Shown: piece after piece, positions 9,635 to 28,977 of the stretch | How the letters are laid out: each line of letters starts with the position of its first letter | Position numbering within the stretch: the first letter of the stretch is position 1 | Assembly: GCA_015661205.1 (NCBI GenBank) | Contig: JACVXV010000012.1 | Span: 1 to 29,404 of the forward strand | Reading direction: 5' to 3' | From: Candidatus Brocadiaceae bacterium | GTDB taxonomy: Bacteria > Planctomycetota > Brocadiia > Brocadiales > Brocadiaceae | DNA: 29,404 nucleotides | Position numbers and translations under genes: made by a program | Notes under the pieces: generated by a model | Told to the model about the DNA's origin: nothing | Databases searched by the model: none | The model's input: the letters and a program-made list of their open reading frames with translations, nothing else

Positions 9635-10098
9635 TTCGTTAATCTTTTTTTATACGATTACGGCTAAAGATACGTCGAATTGAATACCAAAGTGCCTTTA
9701 CCTGGTTAGAAAAAAATATCCAAACCGCTATTGCAAGGGCAACCAACGGTGCCAATAACTGGAAAAGGTAACCTCCAGCATTTGGGTCAATGTAGGCAAA
9801 GTGAACAGCGTCAGCAAAATCATGGTGTTGTTTTCATGCAAATTAGGTGTTAGTAAGAGTTTGCCGCCGAGAATGTGGAGGACGAACACAAGTATGAATC
9901 ATATTATAAAGCTGAGGGGTTTATCAAGAAAATTATAGACAAACAAGCCAGGTTTTCGGTGCTTAACCCGGTGATCACTGGGGATTCGTCCGGTATTTTT
10001 CGAAAAACAGAAGCCTTTGGCTCTATGTTGCCGGTATCCATGTAATCGAGTACCGCAACGTGGGCTTTAAAATTCTACAAACCGATAAACCCTTGCTA

Positions 10099-10734
10099 TT
10101 ACAGCCGGGGGTCAAAAAGCCCAAGCGCCTTGCCTGCCACTCGAAACTCCTCTTCCAGCAGCCATTTTTTTACCACCAACCCTGATGCGTAGCCGGTTAA
10201 TCGTCCGTCCGCACCGATAACCCTGTGGCAAGGGATGATGGGGGGGAGGGGGTTGTTGTGATTGGCGGAACCTACGGCCCTGGACGCACCGGGACTCCCG
10301 ATCTGCTCAGCAACCCACTGATAAGATCGGCATTCTCCGTAAGGGATATCCTGCAGTTTCTTCCACACCTTCGTCTGAAACGGGGTTCCATTGCTTGTAT
10401 CCAGGGGGAAGTCGAATGTCACTTGCTTACCGGAGAAGTATGCCCTTAGAGCGGCTATTTCATACTGTAGGGATACATCGTTTCTTTCTATGGGCGTTGC
10501 TGCTTTTTTGAAAAAGGCGTGCAGAAAATCGTTTTCCGTATCGTGGGGAAAGGAAATCCGGCACACACCATGCGCATTTTTTGCCGCGAAGAGCAGCCCT
10601 ATTGGGGTGGAAAGACTACTGAAGTAAATCGCACCGGGATTATCTTCTTGCACTTTTGTTTGCGGCGCCCTTATTTCCCGCGCCCTCGTCTTTGCCCTTT
10701 GCGCCTTTACCGGCGCCTGAACCTTTACGTCCAA
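10099..10734 (-). CDS. ogt: Methylated-DNA--protein-cysteine methyltransferase (MGMT/Ogt)
   Basis: Active site is [17 protein letters not shown], preceded by the helix-turn-helix region [25 protein letters not shown]. The true start may be the in-frame GTG at 10653, which would reduce the overlap with the upstream gene from 95 nt to 14 nt. Confidence 0.85.
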   Translation of the reverse strand: MDVKVQAPVKAQRAKTRAREIRAPQTKVQEDNPGAIYFSSLSTPIGLLFAAKNAHGVCRISFPHDTENDFLHAFFKKAATPIERNDVSLQYEIAALRAYFSGKQVTFDFPLDTSNGTPFQTKVWKKLQDIPYGECRSYQWVAEQIGSPGASRAVGSANHNNPLPPIIPCHRVIGADGRLTGYASGLVVKKWLLEEEFRVAGKALGLFDPRL

Positions 10735-12436: not shown

Positions 12437-12460
12437 AAGGAATGCAAGAGAGGGATATTC

Positions 12461-13942
12461 ATGAAAAAACTTGTGTTGATTAATCCTCACCCCATCGGAA
12501 ACGTCGGGGAGGAAAACGTATCCGTACTAAACCAAATGCCGGTAAATCTCGGCTATCTCAAGGTGTTAACCCCAAAAAACTGGGACGTCGATATCATCGA
12601 CGAAACCCAGGAACCCGCTGTAGATGAAGCCACCGGCGATATTACCTTCGGAGGGGCGGACCTGGTGGGCGTCACCGCCGTCAGCTACCAGGCGCAACGG
12701 GCGTATCAGATTGCAGCCGCGTGCAGGAAACGGGGCATACCCGTCATAATGGGCGGCATCCATGCCACCAGCTTCCCGGAAGAGGCTGCAAAGTATGTGG
12801 ACTGCGTGGTGACCAGGGAGGCCGTTACTACCTGGGAAAAGATTATCAGCGATTTCGAGAAGGGGCAGCTCCAAAAGCGATATGACGGTGTGCTGACCCC
12901 CATGGAGCTTTACCACGGCCTGCGCCCCGATAGAAAATTTCTGCAAGACAAATACAAGTACCGCTATTCAGGGATTATTACCACCGCCGGATGTCCGTTT
13001 AGTTGTGAGTTCTGCTCCGTTCCGCAGTTCCAGGGAAAGAAGTACCGGGAAAGGCCGATAGAGGACGTGCTGGACGAGTTTGAGTCCATCAAGGGGCAAT
13101 TCCGTGGACTGATCCTGACGGATGAAAATTTTTACGGCCACAGCAAAAAGTCCAACGAGCGGGTGCGGGAGCTTTTCAAAGGGATGGTGGATAGGGGTAT
13201 TTACCAAAACTGGTTTGGCTTTACCTCGCTCAACATCTACCAAGACGACGAAACCCTTGAATACATGAAGAAGAGCGGGTGCGTCGGCGTGCTTATCGGC
13301 ATCGAATCCATCAACGAAGAAGCCCTGAAGACGATGAACAAGAACGTAAACCTGCGCATATCCATAGAAAACTACTTCGAGGCAATAGCCAACATCCGCA
13401 AGCATGGCTTGGCCGTTTGGGGAACGATGGTCTTCGGCAATGACGCCGATACCCCGGACACCTTTAAACAGGTTGCCGAATTTGTCCTTAATTCCCACGT
13501 AGACGTAATGACCTGCGGCATCTTATGCCCATTCATCAATACGCCGCTGTACCACCGTTTAAACAACGACGGCAGGCTTTTCAGGACGAATTTCCCGGCG
13601 GATTGGAAGTATTATACTTCGCACCACCTCACCTACATCCTCAAGAACATGACCCTCCAGGAGATCATCGACGGCTTCCAGTATCTGTACGATAAGATTT
13701 ATGACACCAATGTATTGCGGAAGCGGTTTCAGAATGCCAAAGAGGTTCTTGCGGACAATATGAACGCCGCCATGTTCGCATTCCGTGTAAACCTGGACTG
13801 GCAAAGCGTCTACCAGCACCTGATACAGAATTTGAAAGACTTGCAGACAACGGGGGTTTACGACGAGGTGTTGAAGCAACATAATCAGTCGAAAAAACAG
13901 GGGAGAACAGTGGATCTGAGGCCATTGGAGGTTTCCCCCTGA
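12461..13942 (+). CDS. B12-binding-domain radical SAM enzyme (class B)
   Basis: Has an N-terminal cobalamin-binding-type Rossmann segment (LVGVTAVSYQAQRAYQIAAACRKRGIPVIMGGIHAT) and a CxxxCxxC cluster motif (CPFSCEFCSV). Confidence 0.85.
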   Translation: MKKLVLINPHPIGNVGEENVSVLNQMPVNLGYLKVLTPKNWDVDIIDETQEPAVDEATGDITFGGADLVGVTAVSYQAQRAYQIAAACRKRGIPVIMGGIHATSFPEEAAKYVDCVVTREAVTTWEKIISDFEKGQLQKRYDGVLTPMELYHGLRPDRKFLQDKYKYRYSGIITTAGCPFSCEFCSVPQFQGKKYRERPIEDVLDEFESIKGQFRGLILTDENFYGHSKKSNERVRELFKGMVDRGIYQNWFGFTSLNIYQDDETLEYMKKSGCVGVLIGIESINEEALKTMNKNVNLRISIENYFEAIANIRKHGLAVWGTMVFGNDADTPDTFKQVAEFVLNSHVDVMTCGILCPFINTPLYHRLNNDGRLFRTNFPADWKYYTSHHLTYILKNMTLQEIIDGFQYLYDKIYDTNVLRKRFQNAKEVLADNMNAAMFAFRVNLDWQSVYQHLIQNLKDLQTTGVYDEVLKQHNQSKKQGRTVDLRPLEVSP

Positions 13943-14694: not shown

Positions 14695-15906
14695 ATGTCA
14701 AAGGTTGTCATCACCGGTTTAGGATTGGTTACACCCGTCGGCATCGGCGTCAAAAAAAGCTGGGAATCGTTCCTCCTGGGCAGGAGCGGCGCAAACGAGA
14801 TGAAGTCCTTTGACACCTCGAAATACAAGGTACACCGGTCTTGTGAGGTAAAAGACTTTGCCTTGGACGTCGAACTGGACAACCAGATAAAAGAAAACAC
14901 TATCCATAAATACGTCTACTACGCCGCCCGTGAAGCCTTACGGGAAAGTGGCCTGCCGGATGAAAAACACTGCGACCGTGAACGGTTCGGCGTCGCCATC
15001 GGGACGCTGGCCGCAGAACTGACCCCTTTTGAAAGATTGCTGAGACTAGACCTCTCGAAAAAAGATAACGGCTTCGACAAAACGGTGGCTGCCGTCTATC
15101 CGCCCAACTCCATCACCAACGTCCTTGCCCACTATTTCGGCTTTGAAGGGCCGACGCTGATCTCCCTGAATGCCTGCTCTTCCGGCAACCACGCCATCGC
15201 CTGGGCGTATGACCGCCTGATGGAAGGCAAGGTTGACGTGGTAATGGTCGGCGGGGGAGACATGATCCCCCAAACGGAGTTCACCCACTTCCACAACCTC
15301 AAGTCACTTGCGCCGGAACGGTGCCAACCCTTCGACAAAAACCGCCAGGGTCTCATGATTGGCGAGGGCGCCGGCATCCTCATCATGGAACGCTACGAAT
15401 TTGCGAAAAAACGCGGTGCGAAGATTATTGCCGAAATGGCCGGGTACGGGCTAAGCTGCGATGGATTCCACATGACCGCGCCCCATCCGGAAGGCGACGG
15501 CGCCGTGAAATGCATGAGCGATGCGATAAAAATGGCAGGCCTTTCGTCCACCGATATCGACTACATCAACGCACATGGCACAGGTACCCCGCACAACGAC
15601 AAATCGGAGACCATCGCCATAAAACGGGTATTCCAGGAACGCGCATACAAAATACCGTGCAGCTCCACAAAATCGATGATAGGCCACCTTATGGGCGCCG
15701 CCAGCGCCGTTGAATCGGTCATCTGCTGCCTGACATTGCGGCACGGGATGCTGCCCCCAACCATTAACTACGAAACACCCGATCCTGAATGCGATCTCGA
15801 CTATATACCGAACACCGCGCGGGAATTGAAGGTACGGCACGTCCTAAACAACTCCTTCGCATTCGGCGGTAATAATGCGACGACGATATTCAGCAGGGTG
15901 GAGTAA
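14695..15906 (+). CDS. Beta-ketoacyl-ACP synthase II-like ketosynthase (catalytically complete)
   Basis: The Cys-His-His triad is present: LNACSSGNHAI, INAHGTGTPHND, STKSMIGHLMGAAS. The C-terminus NSFAFGGNNATTIF is typical. Confidence 0.9.
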   Translation: MSKVVITGLGLVTPVGIGVKKSWESFLLGRSGANEMKSFDTSKYKVHRSCEVKDFALDVELDNQIKENTIHKYVYYAAREALRESGLPDEKHCDRERFGVAIGTLAAELTPFERLLRLDLSKKDNGFDKTVAAVYPPNSITNVLAHYFGFEGPTLISLNACSSGNHAIAWAYDRLMEGKVDVVMVGGGDMIPQTEFTHFHNLKSLAPERCQPFDKNRQGLMIGEGAGILIMERYEFAKKRGAKIIAEMAGYGLSCDGFHMTAPHPEGDGAVKCMSDAIKMAGLSSTDIDYINAHGTGTPHNDKSETIAIKRVFQERAYKIPCSSTKSMIGHLMGAASAVESVICCLTLRHGMLPPTINYETPDPECDLDYIPNTARELKVRHVLNNSFAFGGNNATTIFSRVE

Positions 15907-16028: not shown

Positions 16029-16910
16029 ATGACAAAAAACACACAACCACTTGCAGAGGTCTTTGGGCATTTCGTTGAGGATATATCTCCTAAAGCAAAT
16101 CGATACCGATCTGGTCGATTATGCCCATTCAATAACAAGGTTCCTAACTGTACCAAAGACAAGGCAAAAAATCCACTCGGCGTATGTAGCGTGTTTCACG
16201 ATGGAGTTCCGACAATAACATGTCCTATCAGGTTTAGGGAGGATTGGCTTATTACCGATGATGCAGCCTCTTTTTTCTTTGGAGATGGCGTCGCCTGGAG
16301 TTCACTTACAGAAGTTCGTCTGAACGACGCGACCGGGAAATCGGCCGGCAACATTGACGTTGTACTTGTCGCTTACGATGACAATGGAAAGGTTTTTGAT
16401 TTTGGTGCCCTGGAAATACAAGCGGTTTACATCTCCGGGAACGTCCGCGACCCCTTTGAATATTATATGACGAACCCAAAAGCTCACGCTCAAATGGACT
16501 GGTCAGCACAGCCAAATTACCCGCGACCAGATTATCTATCTTCTTCACGAAAACGTTTAGCACCTCAACTTCTCTATAAGGGTGGAATCCTTCATTCTTG
16601 GCGCAAGAAGACAGCCGTTGCATTAAACAGGAGTTTCTTTGAGACACTTCCGCCTTTGAAAACAATCAGCAAATCGAAGGCCGATATTTCTTGGCTTATA
16701 TACGATCTTCAGTTGGTCAAAGAGGAGGGACAATCAAGGTTCACACTAACAAAGACTGACGAAGTTTTTACGGAATTTGAGCCGGCCCTTCTAGCTATAA
16801 CGACTTCCTCACCGGGAAATATAGACGATTTTATAAACTTGCTTCAAGAGAAGCTTGATGAGCAACTTGAAACGCCGCCAAACAACAAAACAATTGAAAA
16901 GCCATTCTGA
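16029..16910 (+). CDS. NotI-family type II restriction endonuclease-like protein
   Basis: The N-terminus has a Cys-rich motif (CPFNNKVPNCTKDKAKNPLGVCSV...TCPIRFRED) of the kind found in the NotI family. A core D...E-x-Q/K-like motif reads GNIDVVLV...FGALEIQAVY. It is adjacent to a methyltransferase. Confidence 0.6.
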   Translation: MTKNTQPLAEVFGHFVEDISPKANRYRSGRLCPFNNKVPNCTKDKAKNPLGVCSVFHDGVPTITCPIRFREDWLITDDAASFFFGDGVAWSSLTEVRLNDATGKSAGNIDVVLVAYDDNGKVFDFGALEIQAVYISGNVRDPFEYYMTNPKAHAQMDWSAQPNYPRPDYLSSSRKRLAPQLLYKGGILHSWRKKTAVALNRSFFETLPPLKTISKSKADISWLIYDLQLVKEEGQSRFTLTKTDEVFTEFEPALLAITTSSPGNIDDFINLLQEKLDEQLETPPNNKTIEKPF

Positions 16911-16911
16911 C

Positions 16912-17859
16912 ATGAAAATATTCAGACAACAATCATTTTTCCCGGAATTGTGCGAGGCTGAAACACGTAAGCCGGTTAATGTCGCTTCTGTGCCGCAAAG
17001 AAGCCCATTTCGGTATCCGGGAGGGAAAACATGGTTTGTTCCAACGTTTCGTGACTGGATTAGAAATCAACATCCTAAACCGGAAATCCTGATCGAGCCG
17101 TTTGCAGGGGGAGGCATTATAAGTATCACCGCCTTGTTTGAGGAATTCGTCTCACGTGTCGTTATGGTTGAGATTGACGAGGATATCGCGGCTGTGTGGC
17201 AATCGGTGGTTGATGGACATGCGGGATGGCTTGCGAAAAGAATCCTTGATTTTGATCTGACCAAGGAATCAGTTATACAGGAAATATCGAAAACAGACGT
17301 TAGCGTCAGAGAGAAGGCGTTTCAAACCATTTTAAAAAACCGCACGTTTCACGGCGGTATATTGGCTGATGGCTCAGGCTTCTTAAAACACGGGGAAAAC
17401 GGCAAAGGAATCCGTTCCCGTTGGTATCCAGCCACCATTGCTAAGCGGTTCAACAATTTGGAACTCGTTGCTGATAGGATTGTTTTCCGTCAGGAAGACG
17501 GGTTTGAAGTCATGCAGGAGTATTCTCAACGCAATGACGTAGTATTCTTTATTGACCCGCCTTATACGGCCGGCGGAAAGAAGGCAGGCAAACGTCTTTA
17601 CCGTCACTTTTGCATAGACCATGAACGTTTATTCTCCTTATGTCAATCGATAAAAGGCGATTTCTTAATGACCTACGACAATGCGGATGAGGTTAAGACA
17701 ATGGCAAGGGCGCATGGCTTTCAGATGCGGCTTATTCCTATGAAGAACACCCACCATGCGGCAATGGAGGAACTGGTTATCGGTAAAAACCTGTCATGGA
17801 TGGATCGCTATGCAGCAGTGCATGAACCGTTTGCTGAATATAAAGTTAATGGCAAGTAA
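16912..17859 (+). CDS. Dam-like (D12 class) N6-adenine DNA methyltransferase
   Basis: Has the SAM motif FRYPGGKTWFVP and the catalytic motif FFIDPPYTAGG. The ATG at 16912 lies 1 nt after the nuclease stop. The track ORF start at 16855 overlaps the upstream gene and is less likely. Confidence 0.8.
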   Translation: MKIFRQQSFFPELCEAETRKPVNVASVPQRSPFRYPGGKTWFVPTFRDWIRNQHPKPEILIEPFAGGGIISITALFEEFVSRVVMVEIDEDIAAVWQSVVDGHAGWLAKRILDFDLTKESVIQEISKTDVSVREKAFQTILKNRTFHGGILADGSGFLKHGENGKGIRSRWYPATIAKRFNNLELVADRIVFRQEDGFEVMQEYSQRNDVVFFIDPPYTAGGKKAGKRLYRHFCIDHERLFSLCQSIKGDFLMTYDNADEVKTMARAHGFQMRLIPMKNTHHAAMEELVIGKNLSWMDRYAAVHEPFAEYKVNGK

Positions 17860-17911
17860 ATCAACTAAGATATAAAACATTCTATAACAGTACGTCATTT
17901 TCGAGAGGGGT

Positions 17912-19828
17912 GTGCCTGTGAGCAACGAATTGACTTTTGAAACATTTGAAAAAGAATGGTTGTTAGATATTGTGTCTGAAAACCCGAGCACGATTGAACT
18001 AGGCAGACGGTTTTCAAAAAAACTGGTCAGCCAGTGGCTCGATTTTGCAGAGGATATCGAGTCTCCAGACGACGTTGTTTACTGTGACGGTACGGGTGAT
18101 GGGGGTATTGACATCGCGTGCTTACAGAGGGGTGATGATACCGAAGACAATTCTAACGGCGGTGACACATGGTATTTAGTTCAGAGTAAGTATGGGGCTG
18201 CTTTTGTCGGGACAAAAACTTTAATAGAAGAAGCGCAAAAGCTTATTGATACCATTGATGGGAAGAGGAATAATCTTTCATCGCTTGCAGCAAGCCTTGT
18301 TGAGAGACTTCAAACTTTTCGGAAGCAAGCATCTGAAAAAGACAAAATGGTTATCGTTTATGCTATACAAAGACCACTCTCTGAGGATGAAAGACGAGCA
18401 GTAGAAGACATTAAAGCAATGGGCAAGAATCGGCTTGGGTCTCTGTTTGATACGGATGTTGTTAGTCTCGAAACAATCTATCACAGGACGCTTGAGGAAA
18501 TCAGTCATATAAAAAAGACACAGGTCTTGATAACTGCTCACTTGGTTCCCTCTGGTGAAGAAATGCTTGTGGGTTCTGTTGGATTGCTTCAACTCTTTGA
18601 ATTTTTAAAGAATTACAAGGCAACAACTGGTGATATTGATATGCTTTATGAAAAGAATGTACGAAAGTTTCTTGGCAGTAGAAGAAAAGTAAACAAGGGA
18701 ATTGAAAATACTCTTTTGACAAAACCTGAAAGATTTGGACTCTACAATAACGGAATTACAATCGTGGTTGAGGAGTTTCAAAAGCTACCTAACAATATTG
18801 AATACGAACTGACTGAACCTTTTGTAGTCAATGGTTGTCAAACAACAAGGACGATTTGGGAAGTCTTGTATAGGAAACTTGAAGCAGGAGGCACTGGCAA
18901 AAATCCAGAACTGGAAACATGGAAAAGAAATCTTGGAAAAGGCATCGTGGTTATTAAAATAGTTAAGGTTGGAATAAGGGGCGATGAACTTCTTACTGAA
19001 ACCACAAGATATACGAACAGTCAGAATGCAGTAAGTGAAAAAGACTTCATAGCGCTTGAGAGTGATTTTCAAAAGTGGTCAAAAAACATGGCTTCCAAGT
19101 ACAATGTTTTTCTGGAAATCCAGCGAGGAGGTTGGGATTCCCAAAAAGCATACCAAAAACAAAACCCTGATACGAGGCAGTTTACTGAATGCATAAATGC
19201 CTTTGACTTGCTGAAGGTCTACGGTGCTGCGTGGTTAGGGGAGGCAGGTATTTCATTTGGGAAAAATCCACCCTTTGCCCCCGGAGGAAGCTTGTTTCAT
19301 AAAATCGTAAAGCAGGAAGACTTTGGTCTTGATGACTTATACTGTGCATTCCAATTATACAAGGCTGGAGGGCATTTCAAGTTTGGTCGTGGTGCAGAGA
19401 AACAACAACGAGGACAAACAAGGCATTTGTTTTACATGCTCACAGTTGAACTGCTTAAAGACTGCTTTATTGCGGCTGACAGGGTGGCAACAAACAAAAA
19501 TATTACCATCGCATTCTTGAATCTCTTCAAGCCCAAAAATGAGATGGCATTAAATGCATTGCTTGAATACTCAATCTCTATAGCTGACGATTATCTGACT
19601 CATGGGCACGAGTATTGTGTGTTTAAGGAACCAAAGTTTTTGGAAAAAGGCAGTGATTTAAATAGTTTTCTGAAATGGGAACAGCTTGGCAAAGGAAATG
19701 ACTCCACCCCCTTATTGAACAACCTTCTTGCACAGTATAAGATCGCCTTAAAGGGTGGCATAGGCGGTCAACCAAAATACAGAGATATGATAAGAGCCAT
19801 CATTCTCACTCCTGATACAGCGGAATAG
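17912..19828 (+). CDS. AIPR-family abortive-infection protein with an N-terminal Mrr/PD-(D/E)xK-like motif
   Basis: AIPR hallmarks are LYNNGITIVVEEF and VVNGCQTTRTIWEVL. The N-terminus, DGTGDGGIDIACL...WYLVQSKYG, resembles the Mrr-type D...Q-x-K core. It has a GTG start with GAGAGGGG upstream. Confidence 0.8.
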   Translation: MPVSNELTFETFEKEWLLDIVSENPSTIELGRRFSKKLVSQWLDFAEDIESPDDVVYCDGTGDGGIDIACLQRGDDTEDNSNGGDTWYLVQSKYGAAFVGTKTLIEEAQKLIDTIDGKRNNLSSLAASLVERLQTFRKQASEKDKMVIVYAIQRPLSEDERRAVEDIKAMGKNRLGSLFDTDVVSLETIYHRTLEEISHIKKTQVLITAHLVPSGEEMLVGSVGLLQLFEFLKNYKATTGDIDMLYEKNVRKFLGSRRKVNKGIENTLLTKPERFGLYNNGITIVVEEFQKLPNNIEYELTEPFVVNGCQTTRTIWEVLYRKLEAGGTGKNPELETWKRNLGKGIVVIKIVKVGIRGDELLTETTRYTNSQNAVSEKDFIALESDFQKWSKNMASKYNVFLEIQRGGWDSQKAYQKQNPDTRQFTECINAFDLLKVYGAAWLGEAGISFGKNPPFAPGGSLFHKIVKQEDFGLDDLYCAFQLYKAGGHFKFGRGAEKQQRGQTRHLFYMLTVELLKDCFIAADRVATNKNITIAFLNLFKPKNEMALNALLEYSISIADDYLTHGHEYCVFKEPKFLEKGSDLNSFLKWEQLGKGNDSTPLLNNLLAQYKIALKGGIGGQPKYRDMIRAIILTPDTAE

Positions 19829-20359: not shown

Positions 20360-21595
20360 ATGAAAAACAGAGTCGTTATCACAGGCATAGGCGTTGTATC
20401 TCCGATTGGATGCGGCAAGGAGGCGTTTTGGAACGGCCTTGTTGAGGGAAGGCAGGGCATAGCGCCGATGGCATCCCTTGACCTCTCCCCTTACCGATGC
20501 AAACTCGGCGGCGAGGTGAAAGACCTTAAACCCGAAGTATACCTCGGGAGCAAGGGACTCAAGTACCTGAACAAGGGAACCCGGTTCCTCGGCTCAGCCT
20601 CAAAGATGGCGCTGGACGACGCAAAACTGCCGCTGGACGGGTCGTTTGGCGACCGGATGGGCGTTGTCGTCGGATCGTCCCTGGGGAATTTCTCCGAGAC
20701 AACCGACTATTTTTACGAAATCATCAAAACCAGCCCATCCGAATTGTCGCCCATGATCAGCTACGACGTCGCCCTGAACTCTTCCATCAACTATGTCTCC
20801 GTCACCTTTAAAATGAAGGGAGTCGCGCGCACCATTTCATCCGGCTTTACGTCGAGCGCCGACGCCGTTGGGGACGCATTCAAGATGGTACAGCGCGGCA
20901 TGACAAAAATAATCGTCACCGGCGGAGTAGAGCAAATCTCCATAGACCTGTACCTGATATTTTACCTGCGCGGCCTGCTGTCAGGCGTAGACGGCGCAAA
21001 AGAGGCGTGCCTGCCCTTCGACAGCGCCCGAAACGGCTTTGTCATGGCCGAAGGCAGCTACATCGTCATCCTGGAAGAACTCCAGCACGCCCTCGACCGC
21101 GGCGCCCCTATTTACGCCGAGGTAAAGGGGTTCGGCAGTTCCTTCGTTGGTGGCAAGCAACACCCGCCGGAAGTGCGGGTAGCCCGCGCGGAGAAGGCCA
21201 TGCGCGCAGCCGTGGAAGACGCCGGGATAAAGAACGAAGACGTCCAGTTAATAAGCGCAAACGCAAACGGCTGCAAGCTGCAAGACGCAGTAGAAGCAAA
21301 GGCCATCCAGTCCCTCTTCGGCGCAAATGGCGGTGGCATCCCCGTCTCCGCAATCAAATCAAACCTGGGCGAGTCGTACGGCGCAGCCGGTACCGCACAA
21401 ATCATTTCCACCCTCATGTCAATCAACACCGGCCAAATACCGCACATCATCAACCACAGCACCAACGACCCTGAAATCAACCTAAACCTCATCCGCGAAA
21501 AACCCGCAAAAAAAGACGTCGGGAACGCATTGATAAACAATATGGATTATGATGGGAATAATGCTTGTTTGGTGGTGGGTAAGTTCTGTAAGTAA
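20360..21595 (+). CDS. Ketosynthase paralog lacking the catalytic triad (KS-beta / chain-length-factor-like)
   Basis: The KAS fold is clear (VVITGIGVVSPIG, VTGGVE, KSNLGESYGAAG). By hand alignment to FabF motifs, the active-site Cys is Phe (TISSGFTSSADAVG, codon 20846-20848), the first His is Asn (ISANANGCKLQD) and the second His is Glu (KSNLGESYG). Confidence 0.85.
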   Translation: MKNRVVITGIGVVSPIGCGKEAFWNGLVEGRQGIAPMASLDLSPYRCKLGGEVKDLKPEVYLGSKGLKYLNKGTRFLGSASKMALDDAKLPLDGSFGDRMGVVVGSSLGNFSETTDYFYEIIKTSPSELSPMISYDVALNSSINYVSVTFKMKGVARTISSGFTSSADAVGDAFKMVQRGMTKIIVTGGVEQISIDLYLIFYLRGLLSGVDGAKEACLPFDSARNGFVMAEGSYIVILEELQHALDRGAPIYAEVKGFGSSFVGGKQHPPEVRVARAEKAMRAAVEDAGIKNEDVQLISANANGCKLQDAVEAKAIQSLFGANGGGIPVSAIKSNLGESYGAAGTAQIISTLMSINTGQIPHIINHSTNDPEINLNLIREKPAKKDVGNALINNMDYDGNNACLVVGKFCK

Positions 21596-21700
21596 TGTGA
21601 TGCTTCGTGAACTTTGCCGGGTTGGGTAATGGTACTCGACTGATTATTAAATGGCACAAGCGAATAGTTTTTATCATTTACGACGAGTTAAAGAAAATTT

Positions 21701-24700
21701 ATGAATTCAGACCTGACCTTTATCACCAACGAAGAAAATAGAAGCCTGTTAGAAAGATTTAGGATACTTATTAAAGATACCCGACTCTTTGATGTGCTTG
21801 TTGGTTATTTCTACACAAGCGGGTTTCACGCACTTTATAAATCACTCGAAAACACTGAAAAAATCAGAATTTTGGTTGGTATAAATACTAATAAACAAAC
21901 TGTTGAACTCATTCAAAAAGCAAAAGTTGAACAACCAACCCTTCAGTATTCGCATGCAGAAGTAAAGGAACAGCTAGAGGTTTCTGTTACAAAAGAAATT
22001 GAAGACTCAGAGGATAGCCCTGCCGTTGAAGAAGGCATCCTAAAGTTTATTGAATGGCTAAAAAGCGGAAAATTAGAAATCAGGGCATACCCAACTGAAA
22101 ACATTCACGCAAAGGTTTACATTATGACCTTTGTTGAAGGTGACAGGGATATAGGGAGAGTCATTACAGGGTCAAGCAACTTCACTCAATCAGGCCTCAT
22201 TGACAACTTTGAGTTTAATGTCGAATTAAAAAACAGGGCAGATTACGAATTTGCATTGCAAAAATTCAACGAACTATGGAAAGACGCTGTTGATGTAAAG
22301 GAACGATATATTGATACAATTCAAATAAAAACCTGGCTGAACAATACCATTACCCCTTACGAATTGTACCTCAAATTTTTATATGAGTATTTCAAAGAGG
22401 AACTCAATCAGGCAGATGAAGTATTTTTGAACTATCTTCCTCAAGAATTCAAAAAACTGGCATATCAGGAGCAGGCCGTTTTAAATGCTAAAAAGATACT
22501 TCTGGAATACGGCGGTGTTTTTATCTCTGATGTTGTAGGGTTAGGCAAGACATACATATCTGCAATGCTGGCAGGGCAGCTTGACGGCAGAACACTTGTT
22601 ATTGCCCCACCTGTATTGCTTGAAAGATCAAACCCCGGCTCCTGGACTAATGTGTTTTCCGATTTCAAGGTACCAGCCGACTTTGAATCGCTCGGCAAAT
22701 TGGATGACCTTATTAACAGAGGGACAGAGAAATACACCAATATTATTGTTGATGAGGCACACCGTTTTAGAACGGAAACAACGATTACCTATGAGAAATT
22801 GGCGGAAATCTGCCGTGGCAAAAGGGTTGTTCTTGTAACGGCGACTCCCTATAACAATGCGCCAAAAGACATCCTAAGCCTTTTAAAGCTATTCCAGAAA
22901 GCCAGAAAAAGCACTATACCAAATCTGCCTGATATGGAAGGCTTTTTCAATAACCTGGATAAAAAATTGAAAAAACTGGACAGGCAGAAAGATTATGTCA
23001 AATACATAAGTACTGTGAAAGAAAATGCGCTGGAACTTCGTGAAAAAGTCCTCAAATATTTAATGGTTCGCCGTACCCGAACGGAAATCGAAAAATATTT
23101 TGGTGAAGACATAAAGAGCCAAAACCTCAAATTCCCTGATGTTGAAAAACCAGTCCCCCTTTTTTATGAACTCAATGATACGGAGGATGAAGTCTTCAAC
23201 AAAACCATTGAATTGATAGCGCAAAAATTCAAATACGCCCGTTATATGCCCATGATTTATTATGAAGGTAAAGTTGATCAGCTTGAAAAGCAGTCCCAGC
23301 GAAACATGGGCAAATTTATGAAAATCCTGCTGGTAAAGCGTCTTGAAAGCAGTTTTTTTGCATTTAAAAATTCGGTGGATAGATTCCTGCGTTCTTACGA
23401 GATGTTTATAAAAGAGCTTGATAACGGAAATGTTTATGTGAGTAAAAAGCATTCTCATAAAATATTTGAACTGTTGGAGAGTGATGACGATGAAGCCGTC
23501 CAGCGATTGATAGATGAGGGCAAGGCTGAAAGATATGTAAGCACTGAATTTAGAGAAGCCTTAAGAAATGATTTACAGCACGACCATGACATTCTCCTAG
23601 AGATTAAAAAACTGTGGCATCATATTGACCGCGACCCGAAGCTTTTAAAATTTTTGGCGGAATTGTCTAAAAACCCGGTTTTAAAAGCAAATCATCTGAT
23701 TATCTTTACAGAATCAAAGGAAACCGCAAACTATCTGTTCAAAAACATCAGTCAACACTACCCGGGTAAAGTACTCTGTTTTACAGGGGATTCAGGCGAG
23801 GCAACGCGCGATATGGTAATTGAGAATTTTGACGCCAGATCACGTCATCCTAAAGAAGATTATCGTATACTGGTCACTACTGAAGTATTGGCTGAAGGTG
23901 TTAACCTGCACCGCTCTAATACGGTGATAAATTACGATATCCCCTGGAATCCTACGCGCATGATGCAGCGGGTAGGGCGTGTCAACCGTGTTGATACATC
24001 ATTTGAAACGATACATACCTTTAATTTCTTCCCGACCAAACAATCAAATGACCAGATAAAACTGAAAGAAGCAGCAGAGGCTAAAATCAATGCCTTTTTA
24101 ACCCTGCTTGGAGGTGACGCAGAACTTTTGACTGAGGGTGAACCCATTGGCTCGCATGAACTATTTAATCGGCTGATTTCCAAACAGACGCTGGAAGGCG
24201 AGGAGAGTGCAGTGGAAAGCGAATTGAAATATCTCCATATTATTAAAGAGATTCGCGATAAGTCCCCCGATCTTTTTGAAACGATAAAACGTCTCCCCAA
24301 AAAGGCGCGCACTGCAAAAACCCTGACAGGGTTCTCAACCCTGTCAGGGTTGATTACCTACTTCAGACGGGGAAAATTGCAGAAATTTTTTGAAACAAAA
24401 CATGAAGGTGGGGCTGAAGAAATGGATTTTCTGACTGCGGCTAAACTGCTGGAGAGTACTCCTGATACGATGAAGGAAAAACTCCCCGAACAGTTTTACG
24501 ACCTCCTGGATAAAAATAAAGAGGCATTTGTTTTAGCGACAACAGAAGAAATGCCTCAGCAAAGTTACAGAGGTGGACGTGACAGCTCTGCAAATATCCT
24601 TAAAATATTGAAGGCCACCATAAGAAACACCCAAAAACTGACAGAAGACCAGGAACTATACCTAAAAAAAGTTCTCATCCAGCTTGAAGAAGGCGGACTG

Positions 24701-25483
24701 CCCAAACAGACGGCAATGCAAACACTGAAAGCCCTGAATGCGCTTCAGAATGAAATCGTTAATCCATTCAAGGTACTGGCGGTTCTTCAGACCCATATTC
24801 CGAAAAAACTTCTGGAAGAACACTATGCAGAACAGAACCCTGTGGTATTTGGCAAGCGGGAAGTTATACTCTCATTATATTTAGCAGGAAAACCCTGTCA
24901 GGGTTATTGGAGAAAGGCAATGAGCACAACAGCCACGCCGTTGTTACCAGGGAACTGGTATCATATTTATAATCGGGGTATCAATGGCGAAACTCTTTAC
25001 CACACTGATGCAAACTACCAATACTTTCTGCACTTGCTCGCCAAATATGTTTTCCACACAGCAAAAGTCTATGCGTATTGTCTTATGAAGAACCATTTTC
25101 ATTTGTTGGTTTCTATTCGTGATGATACAAAAAGAAAGCCACATCTCTATTTTTCAGACATGTTTAACAGCTATACCCAAGGGCTTAACAAACAACTGGG
25201 ACGGACGGGAAGTCTCTTCGAACGCCCCTTTCGCCGTAAGGTGATTTCATCTGAAAATCAGCGAGTTCAGGTAACTTTCTATATACACAATAATCCCCGG
25301 CATCATGGCATAATGAATGACTTTGCTGAGTACCCGTACTCCTCATACAGGGCTGTGCTGTCGAACGCACCAACGAAAATAGAGCGCGAAGCAGTGCTTT
25401 CGTGGTTTGGTGGGCGTGATGGTTTCTTGGCATATCATAGCATTGGTTGCGATGACATTTCAGATAATCTAATATTGGAGTAA
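21701..25483 (+). CDS. PLD(HKD)-nuclease / SNF2-family helicase, read through in frame into a RAYT-like HUH transposase domain
   Basis: The N-terminal HKD motif is NIHAKVYIM...GRVITGSSNFTQSG. Helicase motifs are I (VGLGKTY), II (IIVDEAHRFR), III (LVTATPYNN) and the C-terminal lobe (LVTTEVLAEGVNLH, PWNPTRMMQRVGRVNRV). The last 187 codons are a Y1/HUH transposase (see the mobile element feature). Confidence 0.85.
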   Translation: MNSDLTFITNEENRSLLERFRILIKDTRLFDVLVGYFYTSGFHALYKSLENTEKIRILVGINTNKQTVELIQKAKVEQPTLQYSHAEVKEQLEVSVTKEIEDSEDSPAVEEGILKFIEWLKSGKLEIRAYPTENIHAKVYIMTFVEGDRDIGRVITGSSNFTQSGLIDNFEFNVELKNRADYEFALQKFNELWKDAVDVKERYIDTIQIKTWLNNTITPYELYLKFLYEYFKEELNQADEVFLNYLPQEFKKLAYQEQAVLNAKKILLEYGGVFISDVVGLGKTYISAMLAGQLDGRTLVIAPPVLLERSNPGSWTNVFSDFKVPADFESLGKLDDLINRGTEKYTNIIVDEAHRFRTETTITYEKLAEICRGKRVVLVTATPYNNAPKDILSLLKLFQKARKSTIPNLPDMEGFFNNLDKKLKKLDRQKDYVKYISTVKENALELREKVLKYLMVRRTRTEIEKYFGEDIKSQNLKFPDVEKPVPLFYELNDTEDEVFNKTIELIAQKFKYARYMPMIYYEGKVDQLEKQSQRNMGKFMKILLVKRLESSFFAFKNSVDRFLRSYEMFIKELDNGNVYVSKKHSHKIFELLESDDDEAVQRLIDEGKAERYVSTEFREALRNDLQHDHDILLEIKKLWHHIDRDPKLLKFLAELSKNPVLKANHLIIFTESKETANYLFKNISQHYPGKVLCFTGDSGEATRDMVIENFDARSRHPKEDYRILVTTEVLAEGVNLHRSNTVINYDIPWNPTRMMQRVGRVNRVDTSFETIHTFNFFPTKQSNDQIKLKEAAEAKINAFLTLLGGDAELLTEGEPIGSHELFNRLISKQTLEGEESAVESELKYLHIIKEIRDKSPDLFETIKRLPKKARTAKTLTGFSTLSGLITYFRRGKLQKFFETKHEGGAEEMDFLTAAKLLESTPDTMKEKLPEQFYDLLDKNKEAFVLATTEEMPQQSYRGGRDSSANILKILKATIRNTQKLTEDQELYLKKVLIQLEEGGLPKQTAMQTLKALNALQNEIVNPFKVLAVLQTHIPKKLLEEHYAEQNPVVFGKREVILSLYLAGKPCQGYWRKAMSTTATPLLPGNWYHIYNRGINGETLYHTDANYQYFLHLLAKYVFHTAKVYAYCLMKNHFHLLVSIRDDTKRKPHLYFSDMFNSYTQGLNKQLGRTGSLFERPFRRKVISSENQRVQVTFYIHNNPRHHGIMNDFAEYPYSSYRAVLSNAPTKIEREAVLSWFGGRDGFLAYHSIGCDDISDNLILE
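24319..24351. repeat. REP-like hairpin dimer copy 1 (inside the helicase ORF, in frame)
   Basis: Sequence is AACCCTGACAGGGTT-ctc-AACCCTGTCAGGGTT, translated as TLTGFSTLSGL. Confidence 0.85.
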
Positions 25484-25530
25484 CTTTACCGTCCGTTAAC
25501 CCTGACAGGGTTTGAAACCCTGTCAGGGTT
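24891..25530 (+). mobile_element. REPtron-like unit: REP half-site, RAYT-type HUH/Y1 transposase ORF (24920-25483), REP dimer
   Basis: AACCCTGTCAGGGTT sits at 24891-24905, GGAGA at 24913-24917 and an ATG at 24920. The protein has NWYHIYNRG, the HUH motif NHFHLLV and the Tyr motif FYIHNNPRHHG, and is 187 aa long. A REP dimer follows at 25498-25530, 15 nt after the stop. Confidence 0.65.
25498..25530. repeat. REP-like hairpin dimer copy 3 (intergenic)
   Basis: Sequence is AACCCTGACAGGGTT-tga-AACCCTGTCAGGGTT, with perfect 15-nt arms. Confidence 0.85.
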
Positions 25531-25550
25531 CAACAGGAATAAAAAATACT

Positions 25551-26930
25551 ATGGATAAACATCAAGCTCAAAACATTATCAGAGAAACCTTTGAAAACTC
25601 TTTTGATAAAGAGAGGTTTGTCGGTTTTATTAAAAACCTTTTAAAACGTATCGAAGAAGATCGTATCCCGCAGCGGCAGGGACAATTCATCCCTGAAGCT
25701 TACAGACAATATATCAGCACACTTGAAAGAATAGGTAAATTCAATGACGGTGAAAACAGAATTGATATCCTTATCATCAAACTCCAAAAAGAGACCTCCC
25801 TTGAACGCGCCCGCACCATGCAGAGAAACTTTGTTGCTGGATATTTACAGGGCAAATACGGTAGTTCAAATGAAAAAGAAGCGGCGCTTGTTGCCTTTGT
25901 ATCGCCCGATGAGAAAGACTGGCGGTTTTCACTGGTAAAGATGGACTACAAGTTTGAACAGACTCAAACTGGCATAATGAAGGTAAAAGACGAATTCACG
26001 CCTGCGCGGAGATGGTCGTTCCTTGTGGGTAAAAATGAAACCAGTCACACTGCCCAGAACAGACTGGTTAACATGCTGGCAAATGACGAACACAGTCCAA
26101 CCCTTGCCGAACTGGAACAGGCATTTGACATTGAAACCGTTACCAAAGAATTTTTCATTAAATACCGTGAGCTTTTTATCCGCACAAAAGAGGAACTGGA
26201 CAAAGTGGTAGAAAACGATGCGAAAATCAAAGCAGATTTTGAGGCAAAAAGTGTAAACGTCGTTGACTTTGCCAAAAAACTTCTTGGACAGATTGTATTC
26301 TTATATTTCCTGCAAAAAAAAGGGTGGTTTGGCGTTGGGCGTGATGCCGAATGGGGCACTGGCTCTAAACACTTTTTGCGTGAACTCTTTGGGAAAAGGC
26401 ACGGCGACTATAAAAATTTCTTCAATGACATTCTGGAACCACTCTTTTATGAAGCTTTGCGTAATGACCGCAGTCATGATGACCACTATTACAGCCAATT
26501 TAACTGCAAAATCCCGTTCTTAAACGGCGGTCTTTTTGATCCCATTGGCAATAACGGTGGATATGATTGGATTAAAACTGATATTCATCTGCCGGACAGC
26601 CTGTTCTCTAATAAAAATAAAACCAAAGAAGGCGATGAGGGCGATGGCATTCTGGATATTTTTGACCGCTACAACTTTACCGTCAGAGAAGACGAGCCGC
26701 TGGAAAAGGAAGTTGCCATTGACCCCGAACTTCTGGGCAAGGCGTATGAAAAGTTCAATGCCATCCGCCCTGACAACTTTGAGGAATATAAAAAGGCATT
26801 AAAGAGCGGGAAAAAAGGTGAAGAAAGCAAATTCAACAAGCAATACGGCGTTTACTACGCCCCCCGTGAGATTGTCCACTATATGTGCCAGCAGATACCT
26901 GCACACAGAATTGATCACTCCCCACCCTGA
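25551..26930 (+). CDS. Eco57I/PglX-like N6-adenine methyltransferase, N-terminal fragment (ends in a stop inside a REP copy)
   Basis: The ATG at 25551 (MDKHQAQNIIRETF) lies just after the REP dimer. The fragment contains FLYFLQKKGW, NGGLFD and the conserved YYAPREIVHYMCQQ block. Its TGA at 26928-26930 is the ctGAca of the REP arm. Confidence 0.75.
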   Translation: MDKHQAQNIIRETFENSFDKERFVGFIKNLLKRIEEDRIPQRQGQFIPEAYRQYISTLERIGKFNDGENRIDILIIKLQKETSLERARTMQRNFVAGYLQGKYGSSNEKEAALVAFVSPDEKDWRFSLVKMDYKFEQTQTGIMKVKDEFTPARRWSFLVGKNETSHTAQNRLVNMLANDEHSPTLAELEQAFDIETVTKEFFIKYRELFIRTKEELDKVVENDAKIKADFEAKSVNVVDFAKKLLGQIVFLYFLQKKGWFGVGRDAEWGTGSKHFLRELFGKRHGDYKNFFNDILEPLFYEALRNDRSHDDHYYSQFNCKIPFLNGGLFDPIGNNGGYDWIKTDIHLPDSLFSNKNKTKEGDEGDGILDIFDRYNFTVREDEPLEKEVAIDPELLGKAYEKFNAIRPDNFEEYKKALKSGKKGEESKFNKQYGVYYAPREIVHYMCQQIPAHRIDHSPP

Positions 26931-28977
26931 CAGGGTTCCAAACCCTGTCAGGGTAGAAGACATCAAGGCCCTGATACACCTCGGTGAACATATTAGCGAA
27001 AATGAAGAAATAGCGCTGATCAAAGGACGAAAAATTCTAGAGGGCAAAAAGAAATCTTCGGGTTACAAATCACAATTGCCCGAAATCATACGCAAGAATG
27101 CCGTATTAATTGATCAGAAACTGGCGGACATCACCGTCTGTGATCCGGCAGTTGGTTCCGGCGCATTTCCTGTGGGCATGATGAGCGAAATTGTAAAGGC
27201 AAGAAGTGTGCTAACGACCTTTATTGTAACTCAAGCGTCCCTGTCTGCATGTGGAGACGCACAGGCAGGCAGCTTGAGTCCAGAAACACTGACAGGGTTC
27301 CAAACCCTGTCAGTGCTAAGGTCAGACCCACCGAGAACAACCTATGATTTCAAACGGCAATGCATTGAAAAATCTCTTTACGGTGTGGATATTGACCCCG
27401 GCGCTGTGGAAATTGCAAAACTTCGGCTGTGGCTATCGCTTGTTGTAGATGAAGATGACATAAAGAACATCAAGCCCCTGCCCAATCTGGATTATAAAAT
27501 TGTCTGCGGGAATTCGTTGCTGGGAGTGGAGAAAAACCTGTTTAACGATCATCTTTTTTTAAAACTGGAAAAAATAAAACCGCTCTACTTCAACGAAACC
27601 AACCCTACAAAAAAGCAGGACTTTAAAAAGCAGATTGATGAACTGATAAGCCAGATTACCAATGGCCATAAAGAATTTGATTTTGAGATTTATTTTTCCG
27701 AAGTGTTTCATCATAAAAAAGGATTTGGCATTGTGATTGCCAACCCACCGTATATCAGGGCCGAAGAATTGGGTGATCTGAAAATACACCTTAAGGCTAC
27801 CTATTCCGTATTCGCCCCTGCCGGTGATATTTTCTCTTACTTTTACGAGAAGTCTTTTAATATTCTGAAAACTCAAGGTGTATTTTGCTTTATCAATAAT
27901 GCGTTTGATAAAACAACTGCTGGAAAAACTTTGCGGGATTACGTTGCGAAAAAATGTTCACTCAAGAAATATGTGGATTTTAAATCTGTCGTTGTTTTTG
28001 AGGGTACGATAACTTACCCTATAATTCTACTTGCAACGAAATCAATGCCTCAAGAGACATTTGAATATCTCAAAGTTACCGAAGACACACTCATGAAGTT
28101 TAATTTTGGTGGGGATATTGTTTATACACCTTTGCCAAGGTCGGCACTGAAGCAGTCTTCATGGAGTTTTGATCATCAGGGGCAAGCTGAGCTATCAGAA
28201 AAGATAGCTAAACATAAGAAGTTGAGAGAAGTATTTGGAAAGTGTTATCGCGGTATTATTACCGGCATAAATGATGCCTTTATAGTAGAAAAAGATTTAG
28301 GCAACATCAAACACTTAAAACCTGTTTTTGAGGGTAAGGACATCAAGAAATGGTTAACACCAGCCATTGGCAAGAAAATGATTGTCTTTGAGAATAAGTC
28401 AACGCGCACGGTTTATAACGGGCAAAACGAAGCGAAAGCGTTTAAAGCTATTCAGGTGGCTTTTCCAGAAATCATGAATCATCTTGAACCCTTTGCCGAA
28501 GCAGCTAAAAAGCGATATGACAAGGGTGAATACTGGTGGGAACTTAGAAACTGTGCTTATTACGACCTTTTTGGAAGACCAAAGATAATTTTTCCCAATC
28601 TTCAAAGCACCAATAAGTTTGCTTATGATACGAGCGGAACGTACCTCAATGCCCCGGCGGTTTTCTTACCGACAGATGCAAAATGGTTATTGGGTCTTCT
28701 AAACTCAAAAGTGGTCTGGTATTTCTTGAAGACAATTTGTGTTGTTAGAAACGGTGGATTTATTGAGGTAAAACCTCAATATTTCGAGCAAATTTCAATA
28801 CCATCCCTCAAAGACACGGATAAGAAACAACTAGATTCTCTCGTTGACCAAATCCTCACTGCAAAACAAAACGTTCCCGATGCCAACACGTCGGCGCTGG
28901 AAAAACAGATTGACCAGATGGTTTACAAACTTTACGACCTCACGCCTGATGAGATTGAAATTGTGGAGGGCAAATAA
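26818..28977 (+). CDS. Eco57I/PglX-like N6-adenine methyltransferase, C-terminal fragment (catalytic motifs plus target-recognition domain) in the +1 frame
   Basis: Motif I is VCDPAVGSGAFPVGM, followed by YGVDIDPGAVEIAKLRLWLSLV and motif IV VIANPPYIRAEEL. A TaqI/Eco57I-type C-terminal domain (YWWELRNCAYYDLFGRPKIIFPN, GGFIEVKPQYFEQISIP, LYDLTPDEIEIVEG) follows. The first ~25 codons of the track ORF overlap the upstream fragment and are probably not translated as such. Confidence 0.8.
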   Translation: MKKANSTSNTAFTTPPVRLSTICASRYLHTELITPHPDRVPNPVRVEDIKALIHLGEHISENEEIALIKGRKILEGKKKSSGYKSQLPEIIRKNAVLIDQKLADITVCDPAVGSGAFPVGMMSEIVKARSVLTTFIVTQASLSACGDAQAGSLSPETLTGFQTLSVLRSDPPRTTYDFKRQCIEKSLYGVDIDPGAVEIAKLRLWLSLVVDEDDIKNIKPLPNLDYKIVCGNSLLGVEKNLFNDHLFLKLEKIKPLYFNETNPTKKQDFKKQIDELISQITNGHKEFDFEIYFSEVFHHKKGFGIVIANPPYIRAEELGDLKIHLKATYSVFAPAGDIFSYFYEKSFNILKTQGVFCFINNAFDKTTAGKTLRDYVAKKCSLKKYVDFKSVVVFEGTITYPIILLATKSMPQETFEYLKVTEDTLMKFNFGGDIVYTPLPRSALKQSSWSFDHQGQAELSEKIAKHKKLREVFGKCYRGIITGINDAFIVEKDLGNIKHLKPVFEGKDIKKWLTPAIGKKMIVFENKSTRTVYNGQNEAKAFKAIQVAFPEIMNHLEPFAEAAKKRYDKGEYWWELRNCAYYDLFGRPKIIFPNLQSTNKFAYDTSGTYLNAPAVFLPTDAKWLLGLLNSKVVWYFLKTICVVRNGGFIEVKPQYFEQISIPSLKDTDKKQLDSLVDQILTAKQNVPDANTSALEKQIDQMVYKLYDLTPDEIEIVEGK
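26924..26954. repeat. REP-like hairpin dimer copy 4 (at the break between the two MTase fragments)
   Basis: Sequence is ACCCTGACAGGGTT-cca-AACCCTGTCAGGGT. It reads HPDRVPNPVRV in the downstream frame and gives a TGA stop in the upstream frame. Confidence 0.85.
27230..27278. repeat. Second, unrelated imperfect palindrome immediately 5' of REP copy 5
   Basis: CTCAAGC-gtccctgtctgc...gcacaggcaggca-GCTTGAG has perfect outer 7-nt arms and imperfect inner arms. It lies inside the MTase ORF. Confidence 0.4.
27287..27315. repeat. REP-like hairpin dimer copy 5 (degenerate, inside the MTase ORF, in frame)
   Basis: Sequence is CACTGACAGGGTT-cca-AACCCTGTCAGTG, translated as TLTGFQTLSVL. Compensatory changes (CC to CA, GG to TG) keep the arms complementary. 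Confidence 0.8.

Follow-up and report, generated by a model that had tools for sequence, protein, structure and literature searches.

Loss of a REP-borne stop codon probably accounts for a helicase-RAYT reading frame in a candidate defence operon of an anammox planctomycete

Does a reading frame in which a putative defence helicase runs without a stop into a transposase encode a new kind of enzyme, or has a stop codon simply been lost? The question is raised by contig JACVXV010000012.1 of a Candidatus Brocadiaceae bacterium (29,404 nt, analysed as a whole and called the window below), where the open reading frame (ORF) list gives a single uninterrupted frame of 1260 aa at positions 21701-25483 of the forward strand. 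This frame comprises a PLD/HKD-SNF2 helicase, a 15-nt palindrome, and a 187-codon segment encoding a RAYT (REP-associated tyrosine transposase, REP being a repetitive extragenic palindrome), so that the helicase frame indeed passes the REP half-site without a stop, as an earlier note on this DNA had described. The junction DNA reads tta gca gga aaa ccc tgt cag ggt tat tgg aga aag gca ATG, the palindrome AACCCTGTCAGGGTT within it encoding K-P-C-Q-G, and at the protein level the boundary, as judged against helicase homologs, is ...SLYLAGK-PCQGYWRKA-MSTT. The RAYT segment has a GGAGA and an ATG of its own, as the same note had stated, and the former lies 6 nt upstream of the latter. The peptide EVILSLYLAGKPCQGYWR would span the junction of the predicted 1260-aa product, while MSTTATPLLPGNWYHIYNR would form the N terminus of a predicted free RAYT. 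The coordinates of all the features are collected in Table 1.

We compared this junction with those of ten related anammox loci (L002, L003/4/8/13, L007, L009, and L010-12), all of which share the order helicase-REP-RAYT-REP-methylase and have a stop before RAYT; the frame upstream of the RAYT ATG was closed within 8 to 31 codons in 10 of 10. The four Kuenenia loci (L003/4/8/13) read aca gca aaa ccc TGA cagggtt-ctt-aaccctgtcagggtt, followed by 21 nt and the ATG, and their helicase terminates at the TGA that forms the centre of the REP's left arm. The same central TGA serves as the stop in the complete genome of B. pituitae (L007), which has the left arm only, and in L009, where the left arm is also present, and a TGA in the REP closes the helicase in L010-12 (aaa caa ccc TGA). 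L002 retains a native TAG, immediately before the hairpin. The window has the right arm of the REP only (ccc TGT cag), a 14-nt spacer, and no helicase stop. The relatives with the REP-borne stop thus carry AACCC-TGA-CAGGGTT, compared with AACCC-TGT-CAGGGTT in the window, and the spacer between the REP and the ATG measures 21 nt in Kuenenia and B. pituitae versus 14 nt in the window. A 21-nt spacer would leave RAYT out of frame with the helicase.

Alignment of the helicase orthologs located their normal end. The homologs are typically ~1063 aa long, nearly all terminate with ...GKREVILS(L/M)YL(T/S/A)G(E/K) and a stop, and every ortholog stops 2 to 6 residues beyond ...SLYL, which is exactly the site of the element. 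The ortholog of B. sapporoensis, which is free of the element, ends with ...YLTGK-taa, and this comparison places the REP insertion at the native stop. The proposal that a REP unit had been inserted at the natural helicase stop and had replaced it was therefore confirmed, because the helicase stop of Kuenenia, B. pituitae, L009, and L010-12 lies within the REP.

These junctions suggest how the present frame may have arisen. A REP/RAYT unit, that is, RAYT with its flanking 33-nt REP hairpins, would have lodged in the short helicase-methylase spacer of a defence operon of anammox planctomycetes, its insertion overwriting the native helicase stop and leaving most relatives with a stop at the TGA of the left arm. 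An 18-nt slippage deletion between the REP arms would leave the right arm alone, and with the TGA arm lost and the spacer shortened by 7 nt the stop would be gone and RAYT would be in frame. Ribosomes finishing the helicase would then append a linker of nine residues and the whole RAYT, giving 1260 aa, and free RAYT would still start at its own conserved Shine-Dalgarno sequence and ATG. Since the Shine-Dalgarno sequence GGAG(G/A), 6 nt before the RAYT ATG, is conserved in 11 of 11 loci (the window and the ten relatives) and all the close RAYT homologs start at the same Met, free RAYT should still be made. Of the two-product outcome envisaged in the earlier note, initiation of free RAYT at the internal start is thus expected from the conserved Shine-Dalgarno sequence and ATG and the invariant M1, while the coexistence of both products is what the sequence would predict. 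A promoter and terminator scan of 21400-25700 returned sites no more numerous than in shuffles and was uninformative on separate transcription.

We then asked whether the fusion is found elsewhere, examining for both the RAYT and the helicase the best 120 matches among 5.8 billion clustered proteins. The RAYT homologs (117 to 225 aa) were all stand-alone, as were the best 150 RAYT representatives of 1.84 billion clusters (126 to 448 aa), and the helicase homologs (991 to 1093 aa, 77 to 90% identity) included none with Y1_Tnp. A helicase-RAYT fusion was accordingly found in 0 of 120 helicase matches, 0 of 120 RAYT matches, 0 of 150 representatives, and 0 of the 10 syntenic loci, so the database search for further PLD-SNF2-Y1_Tnp proteins proposed earlier has given a negative answer for these sets. 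Since none of these related genomes carries the fusion, an observation that the earlier note itself had named as speaking against its reading, we regard it as a strain-specific event. Exact look-ups of the 1260-aa fused protein and of the 187-aa RAYT found neither in an index of 153 billion genes, and these look-ups thus offered no second assembly in which to confirm the fusion.

Enzymes that combine an HUH nuclease with a helicase (relaxases such as TraI, Helitron RepHel, and the parvovirus and circovirus Rep proteins) have the HUH domain at the N terminus and an unwinding helicase of superfamily 1 or 3, and their fusion is family-wide. The frame in the window is like them in that one polypeptide carries both an HUH/Tyr nuclease and a DNA motor driven by NTP, but its HUH domain is C-terminal, its motor is a superfamily 2 translocase of the SNF2 type accompanied by a PLD nuclease, and the fusion was found once. 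The fusion departs from the relaxase/Rep pattern in its domain order, in its helicase superfamily, and in not being conserved, and for these reasons it does not constitute a new class of helicase-HUH enzyme. The suggestion that it could be a functional, selected architecture was thus not upheld, given its uniqueness among the homologs and the ten loci.

The identity of the 187-codon segment was determined from both sequence and a structural model. It matches NCBIfam REP_Tyr_transpos (NF047646) with an E value of 1e-12, at a score below the curated cut-off (48.1 versus 80 bits), as is also the case for Pfam Y1_Tnp (17.6 versus 23 bits), and the window RAYT belongs to a divergent subfamily. Searches of PDB sequences gave weak matches to 4er8 only (E values of 0.41 with the single sequence and 0.014 with the profile), which made a comparison of structures necessary. 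An AlphaFold (AF2) model built from 14 homologs had a pLDDT of 91.4, and its best Foldseek match was 4er8_A (E value, 1.5e-8; TM, 0.65/0.72), the structure of the E. coli RAYT in complex with a REP hairpin; IS200/IS608 transposases came next. NHFHLL at residues 58 to 63 (HFHLL, 59 to 63) aligns with the HMH of 4er8, and YIHNNP, with the predicted catalytic Tyr121, aligns with YIYINP. In an alignment of 14 family members M1, H59, F60, and Y121 were invariant and H61 was at least 90% conserved. The segment is thus a RAYT, a predicted HUH Y1 nuclease that would cleave and rejoin REP DNA in single-stranded form, and its earlier assignment as a RAYT-like HUH transposase with HFHLL and YIHNNP motifs is supported by both the NCBIfam and the 4er8 fold match. 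In the RAYT of L002 (L002:6001-6564, P0002), HFYLL replaces HFHLL, so that the HUH motif lacks its second His, and this copy may be inactive. The closest RAYT homologs (86 to 90% identity) have exactly 187 aa and the same Met start. Since residues 1 to 4 are disordered in the model and the first strand begins at residue 13, an N-terminal extension would not necessarily unfold RAYT.

Across six loci the dN/dS of RAYT was 0.10 to 0.19 (dS, 0.28 to 0.71), and that of the last 150 helicase codons was 0.11 to 0.22 (dS, 0.41 to 0.76). These values indicate that the two genes have diverged side by side, that RAYT is under purifying selection, and that it is an old resident of the operon. A more distant family member (56% identity) sits among unrelated genes, and the RAYT-operon link is therefore specific to the anammox lineage. 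That the RAYT family might be intrinsically linked to defence was also considered and rejected, given the position of this distant member and the mostly extragenic location of the hairpin in many phyla (119 stretches).

REP/RAYT systems have been portrayed as chromosomal residents that occur in single copy and are inherited vertically. Like the known RAYT/TnpA_REP proteins (E. coli TnpA_REP, 4er8; Pseudomonas REPIN-RAYT), the window RAYT is a single-domain HUH-Y1 protein of ~190 aa flanked by hairpin repeats; in related genomes the 33-nt hairpin is scattered over many Kuenenia and Brocadia contigs, mostly in extragenic positions. Unlike the known proteins, the window RAYT scores under the curated cut-offs of the hidden Markov models and lies inside a horizontally mobile defence operon with which it has co-diverged, not in a housekeeping neighbourhood. 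Its REP provides the stop codon of the upstream gene in the relatives, REPs stand in frame in the neighbouring coding sequences, and in this strain RAYT itself is in frame with the upstream gene. With subclass 2.4 of Quentin et al. 2018 (PMC6006769), for which RAYTs with NHFH and YIxNNP motifs are listed, it shares NHFH, YIHNNP, and its length.

The palindromes themselves were examined for copy number, folding, and position. The 15-mer AACCCTGNCAGGGTT occurs nine times in the window with at most two mismatches, against 0.12 copies expected, a number reached in 0 of 100 shuffles, and all nine copies are confined to 24319-27317, inside the 3-kb operon. The palindrome downstream of RAYT forms one hairpin, whose stem measures 15 bp and whose loop measures 3 nt (free energy, -17.4 kcal/mol; z, -6.8); it had been described as a REP dimer, of which the palindrome stands and the two-unit form does not. 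Since the lone 15-mer of the junction forms a weak 6-bp hairpin (-4.5 kcal/mol; z, -1.7) while the 33-mer forms the full one, the junction carries half an element only. RAYT in the window is nonetheless flanked by its own palindromes, as claimed before, with a half REP at its 5' side and a full REP at its 3' side. Among the relatives, L009 has full REPs on both sides, L002 and L003 have a full hairpin at the 5' side, and L007 has one at the 3' side; after the RAYT stop there is a full 33-mer in L007 and L009 and a single arm in L002, and the contig of L003 ends at that point.

The 33-nt element equals 11 codons and is open in two of three frames, and further copies lie in frame within the two genes next to RAYT. 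The helicase REP, bounded by KKARTAK and LITYFRRGKLQKFF, stands in place of a 7-residue variable loop (K-HNTEHAN-SLITYF), and does so solely in the anammox group and P0223. The idea that this internal hairpin is ancestral helicase sequence was rejected, as most orthologs have the different 7-residue loop. In L134 (6378-6452) this helicase loop is occupied by copies of another REP, ACAGACA-N4-TGTCTGT, which are translated as TQTGMSV, and further helicase orthologs have other hairpin-derived peptides in this loop or its neighbour. Of the methylase REPs, the one upstream of motif I shares its loop with RAYT insertions of other methylases that we call class B, and the degenerate one shares its loop with class A insertions, that of B. 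sapporoensis (L005) included. An additional in-frame methylase hairpin was observed at 27229-27279 (VTQASLSACGDAQAG; -15.6 kcal/mol; z, -3.9), and peptides resembling it (VTQASSL...KQDAC, DLSACGHAQAG) occur in loops of several helicase and methylase orthologs. Three particular loops of the two defence genes have thus been hit independently by at least three hairpin families.

Across genomes the 33-nt hairpin appears to behave as a normal, mostly extragenic REP, since of 127 copies only 9 are buried in the interior of long open frames and 118 lie outside it. Among GTDB representative genomes the exact 33-mer was found in 119 stretches or more, spread over several phyla, and on several contigs each in K. 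hertensis, Kuenenia sp. Bin_40, B. pituitae, and B. carolinensis. Rickettsia palindromic elements and miniature inverted-repeat transposable elements (reviewed in PMC10969869) are likewise short palindromes tolerated in frame in genes, where they add a surface-loop peptide. The 33-nt repeats of the window are similarly in frame within protein-coding genes; they differ in being the cognate REPs of an adjacent RAYT and in being concentrated in three loops of two defence genes.

An unrelated RAYT has entered the partner methylase in other lineages. In B. sapporoensis (L005, MJUW02000018) no RAYT follows the helicase, and a methylase ORF of 1112 aa holds a different RAYT in frame (12456-13230), with the motifs RRNLPHW ... 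NHVH ... YIAENP and flanking ACAGACA-N4-TGTCTGT hairpins. A search for methylase homologs with this L005 protein, whose ranking is biased because the query contains the RAYT insert, returned 35 proteins among the 120 best matches (within P0241-P0352) that combine Y1_Tnp with Eco57I, 26 of them full-length (1273 to 1458 aa). They come from Omnitrophota, Acidobacteriota, Melioribacteraceae, Peptococcaceae, and Brocadia. The HUH motif is retained in 35 of 35 and the Tyr motif (YIxENP) in 33 of 35. Fourteen inserts lie between methylase motif I and YGVDIDP and twelve between SLINYL... and ...DIExLIHxG, both being loops that bear the REP hairpins of the window's methylase, and on either side of the inserts REP-encoded peptides form variable arrays, with (N)TDIPVC at the 5' side and TQT(G/R)MSV at the 3' side. 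A Met in the ~40 residues upstream of the R-x-L-P-H-W domain start was found in 0 of the 26 full-length proteins. For the 24 proteins of the main subfamily, insert identity was 81% and 68% within the two site classes and 65% between them, and the corresponding values for the N-terminal part of the methylase were 77%, 64%, and 53%. Because insert identity tracks that of the methylase, these data fit a few old RAYT insertions followed by evolution together with the methylase gene. One RAYT-bearing methylase (L134:7001-10822) directly follows a PLD-SNF2 helicase of 1107 aa. In the open-access library searched we found no paper that links RAYT with anammox, with restriction-modification or defence, or PF01797 with PF07669/Eco57I.

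The operon that houses RAYT pairs the helicase, which matches the PADLOC model C3a139 (HKD+Snf2) with an E value of 8e-45, with a methylase of the type IIG kind. As an HKD nuclease and an SNF2 motor in one protein adjoin an Eco57I-type N6-adenine methylase (Pfam, PADLOC), the operon is a candidate anti-phage defence module, the helicase model being listed by PADLOC as a candidate only. It resembles known pairs of PLD/HKD-SNF2 proteins and N6-adenine methylases (C3a139; DISARM DrmD/DrmMI-like; type IIG restriction enzyme-methyltransferases) in matching their models; it differs in that curated NCBIfam cut-offs are unmet (PADLOC shows no cut-offs), in its resident RAYT gene, and in the frameshifted methylase of the window. 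The helicase-methylase pair is also present in L002, L007, L009, and L134-136, as well as in L005, where a single gene separates the two. Helicase homologs with 77 to 90% identity come from Planctomycetota (Brocadia, Kuenenia), Bacteroidota, Nitrospirota, Desulfobacterota, Marinimicrobia, and a Methanosarcinales archaeon (P0121-P0240), and identity this high across phyla and an archaeon, which a mobile defence module would be expected to show, implies that the operon has probably been transferred horizontally, recently and widely.

The methylase of the window is split. PADLOC REase_MTase_IIG positions 1-444 fall in the first ORF and 564-1144 in the second, and in a tblastn search with the B. 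pituitae protein the frame switched directly after YMCQQ (window 26890-26900), with SLIN missing. The same 459-aa methylase ORF occurs in an independent Logan contig of SRR13434397 (starting at ~25077), and hence the frameshift is not peculiar to the assembly of the window. The methylase is also broken in L002 (825 + 202 aa), L005 (281 + 1112 aa), L010 (332 + 950 aa), and L007 (N-terminal part out of frame); the break lies at a different place in each anammox locus, with the helicase intact, and decay, phase variation, or error are possible causes.

We consider it probable that the fusion is a strain-specific read-through, neutral or mildly harmful, that resulted from the loss of the REP-borne stop. 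The broken methylase suggests relaxed selection on the operon in this strain, which would fit a tolerated accident at the end of the helicase. Several observations weigh against this reading. The in-frame fusion required two separate changes, the loss of an arm and a spacer shorter by 7 nt, which selection could also favour, and the helicase and RAYT parts are both intact. In other lineages the partner methylase commonly contains a conserved RAYT domain in frame, so expression of RAYT in frame is not abnormal per se in this operon family. Finally, the junction is uncovered by independent assembly or reads, as the Logan contigs of SRR13434397 end at ~22187 and restart at ~25077, inside RAYT. 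This last point touches the possibility that the fusion is an artefact of assembly or sequencing, the real genome having the full 33-nt hairpin or an A-centred arm with TGA, the palindrome being collapsed, and the cell having no fusion. In favour of an artefact, the element, a perfect short repeat both inverted and direct, has five copies in 3 kb, the assembly of SRR13434397, the probable source run, breaks on either side of the junction, the fused protein and the exact 187-aa RAYT are missing from the gene index, and every relative has the stop. A single-arm REP at the same site in the complete B. pituitae genome speaks against an artefact, however, as does the reproduction of the neighbouring oddity, the methylase frameshift, in an independent contig; moreover, the spacer of the window also differs from that of the relatives, so no simple collapse of a known sequence would produce it. 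We hold an artefact to be unlikely, if worth keeping in mind.

It appears quite improbable that the fusion is functional and selected, with the SNF2 translocase bringing the HUH nuclease to DNA or RAYT recruiting the helicase and its PLD nuclease to hairpin DNA, even though both parts are intact, RAYT is a long co-diverging member of the operon with a low dN/dS and a dS like that of the helicase, and covalent RAYT-defence combinations persist, as the unrelated RAYT occurs in frame only, inside the methylase, in at least 26 full-length proteins with conserved HUH and Tyr motifs. Such a role would have to be reconciled with the absence of other helicase-RAYT fusions among the best matches, the 150 representatives, and the 10 syntenic loci, with the retention by RAYT of its own Shine-Dalgarno sequence and ATG, with the broken methylase of the operon in this strain, and with an architecture opposite to that of known HUH-helicase enzymes. 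We give hardly any credence to a switchable stop, in which inversion or exchange of the arms, mediated by RAYT or by slippage, would toggle between TGA and TGT and strains would alternate between separate and fused products. The REP arm is palindromic except for its central base, the loci compared show three states at the site (full hairpin, A-centred single arm, and T-centred single arm), and slippage between 7-nt direct repeats 18 nt apart would be mechanistically easy, but the read-through state was seen in 1 of 11 loci and the 7-nt spacer change that sets the frame is not reversible by arm exchange.

Elsewhere in the window we observed a second defence cluster just upstream of the helicase (16029-19828), which comprises a NotI-like endonuclease, a D12-class methylase, and an AIPR abortive-infection protein and lies between two paralogs of beta-ketoacyl synthase (14695-15906 and 20360-21595). 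In the region of ogt (O6-methylguanine methyltransferase) a segment of ~230 nt is duplicated (5983-6212 and 10079-10311, 4.1 kb apart, 86 to 91% identity), and three tandem 54-nt repeats (5110-5271, 63 to 72% identity) lie in a 375-aa ORF on the reverse strand (4430-5557) with no Pfam match.

Table 1. Features of the helicase-RAYT-methylase region of the window
Feature	Position	Strand	Remarks
Helicase part of the fused ORF	21701..24892	+	1064 codons; C terminus ...SLYLAGK at the ortholog stop position; Pfam PLDc_2, SNF2-rel_dom, Helicase_C; PADLOC C3a139
In-frame 33-nt REP hairpin within the helicase coding sequence	24319..24351	+	Peptide TLTGFSTLSGL; -17.5 kcal/mol, z -6.3
Half REP (T-centred arm, AACCCTGTCAGGGTT) at the helicase/RAYT junction	24891..24905	+	Without the TGA that terminates the helicase of relatives; weak fold
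Linker, nine codons (PCQGYWRKA) from REP and spacer	24893..24919	+	Includes the RAYT Shine-Dalgarno sequence GGAGA (24909-24913)
RAYT gene	24920..25483	+	187 codons and stop TAA (25481-25483); HUH 25094-25102; predicted catalytic Tyr121 25280-25282
Complete 33-nt REP hairpin 3' of RAYT	25498..25530	+	14 nt past the RAYT stop, 20 nt upstream of the methylase ATG
Type IIG-like (Eco57I/TaqI_C) methyltransferase	25551..28977	+	Split into ORFs 25551-26930 and 26818-28977 by a frameshift at ~26893-26897
In-frame REP hairpin in a methylase loop upstream of motif I	26923..26955	+	Peptide PDRVPNPVRV; B. pituitae has one at the same site
Degenerate in-frame REP hairpin in a methylase loop, motif I to YGVDIDP	27285..27317	+	Peptide TLTGFQTLSVL

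The fusion is probably a one-off and ought not to be presented as a novel helicase-HUH enzyme. Less expected is that a REP/RAYT unit inside a mobile defence operon supplies the stop codon of its host gene, has diverged together with the operon while under purifying selection, and places hairpins in frame in loops of the defence proteins. Two REP/RAYT families that are unrelated to each other have repeatedly settled at the same places of this operon, namely one helicase loop, two methylase loops, and the intergenic junction, in a coding-compatible way, and this repetition keeps alive, with a small probability, the notion that RAYT expression in frame is more than an accident. It is improbable that RAYT nucleases are long-term components of these operons, selected for the benefit of the element or of the host and expressed through host genes, with the fusion of the window as a working instance. 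If these associations were selected, REP/RAYT could have spread between phyla by hitch-hiking on defence genes; alternatively, the defence proteins may have acquired a hairpin-specific single-strand nuclease.

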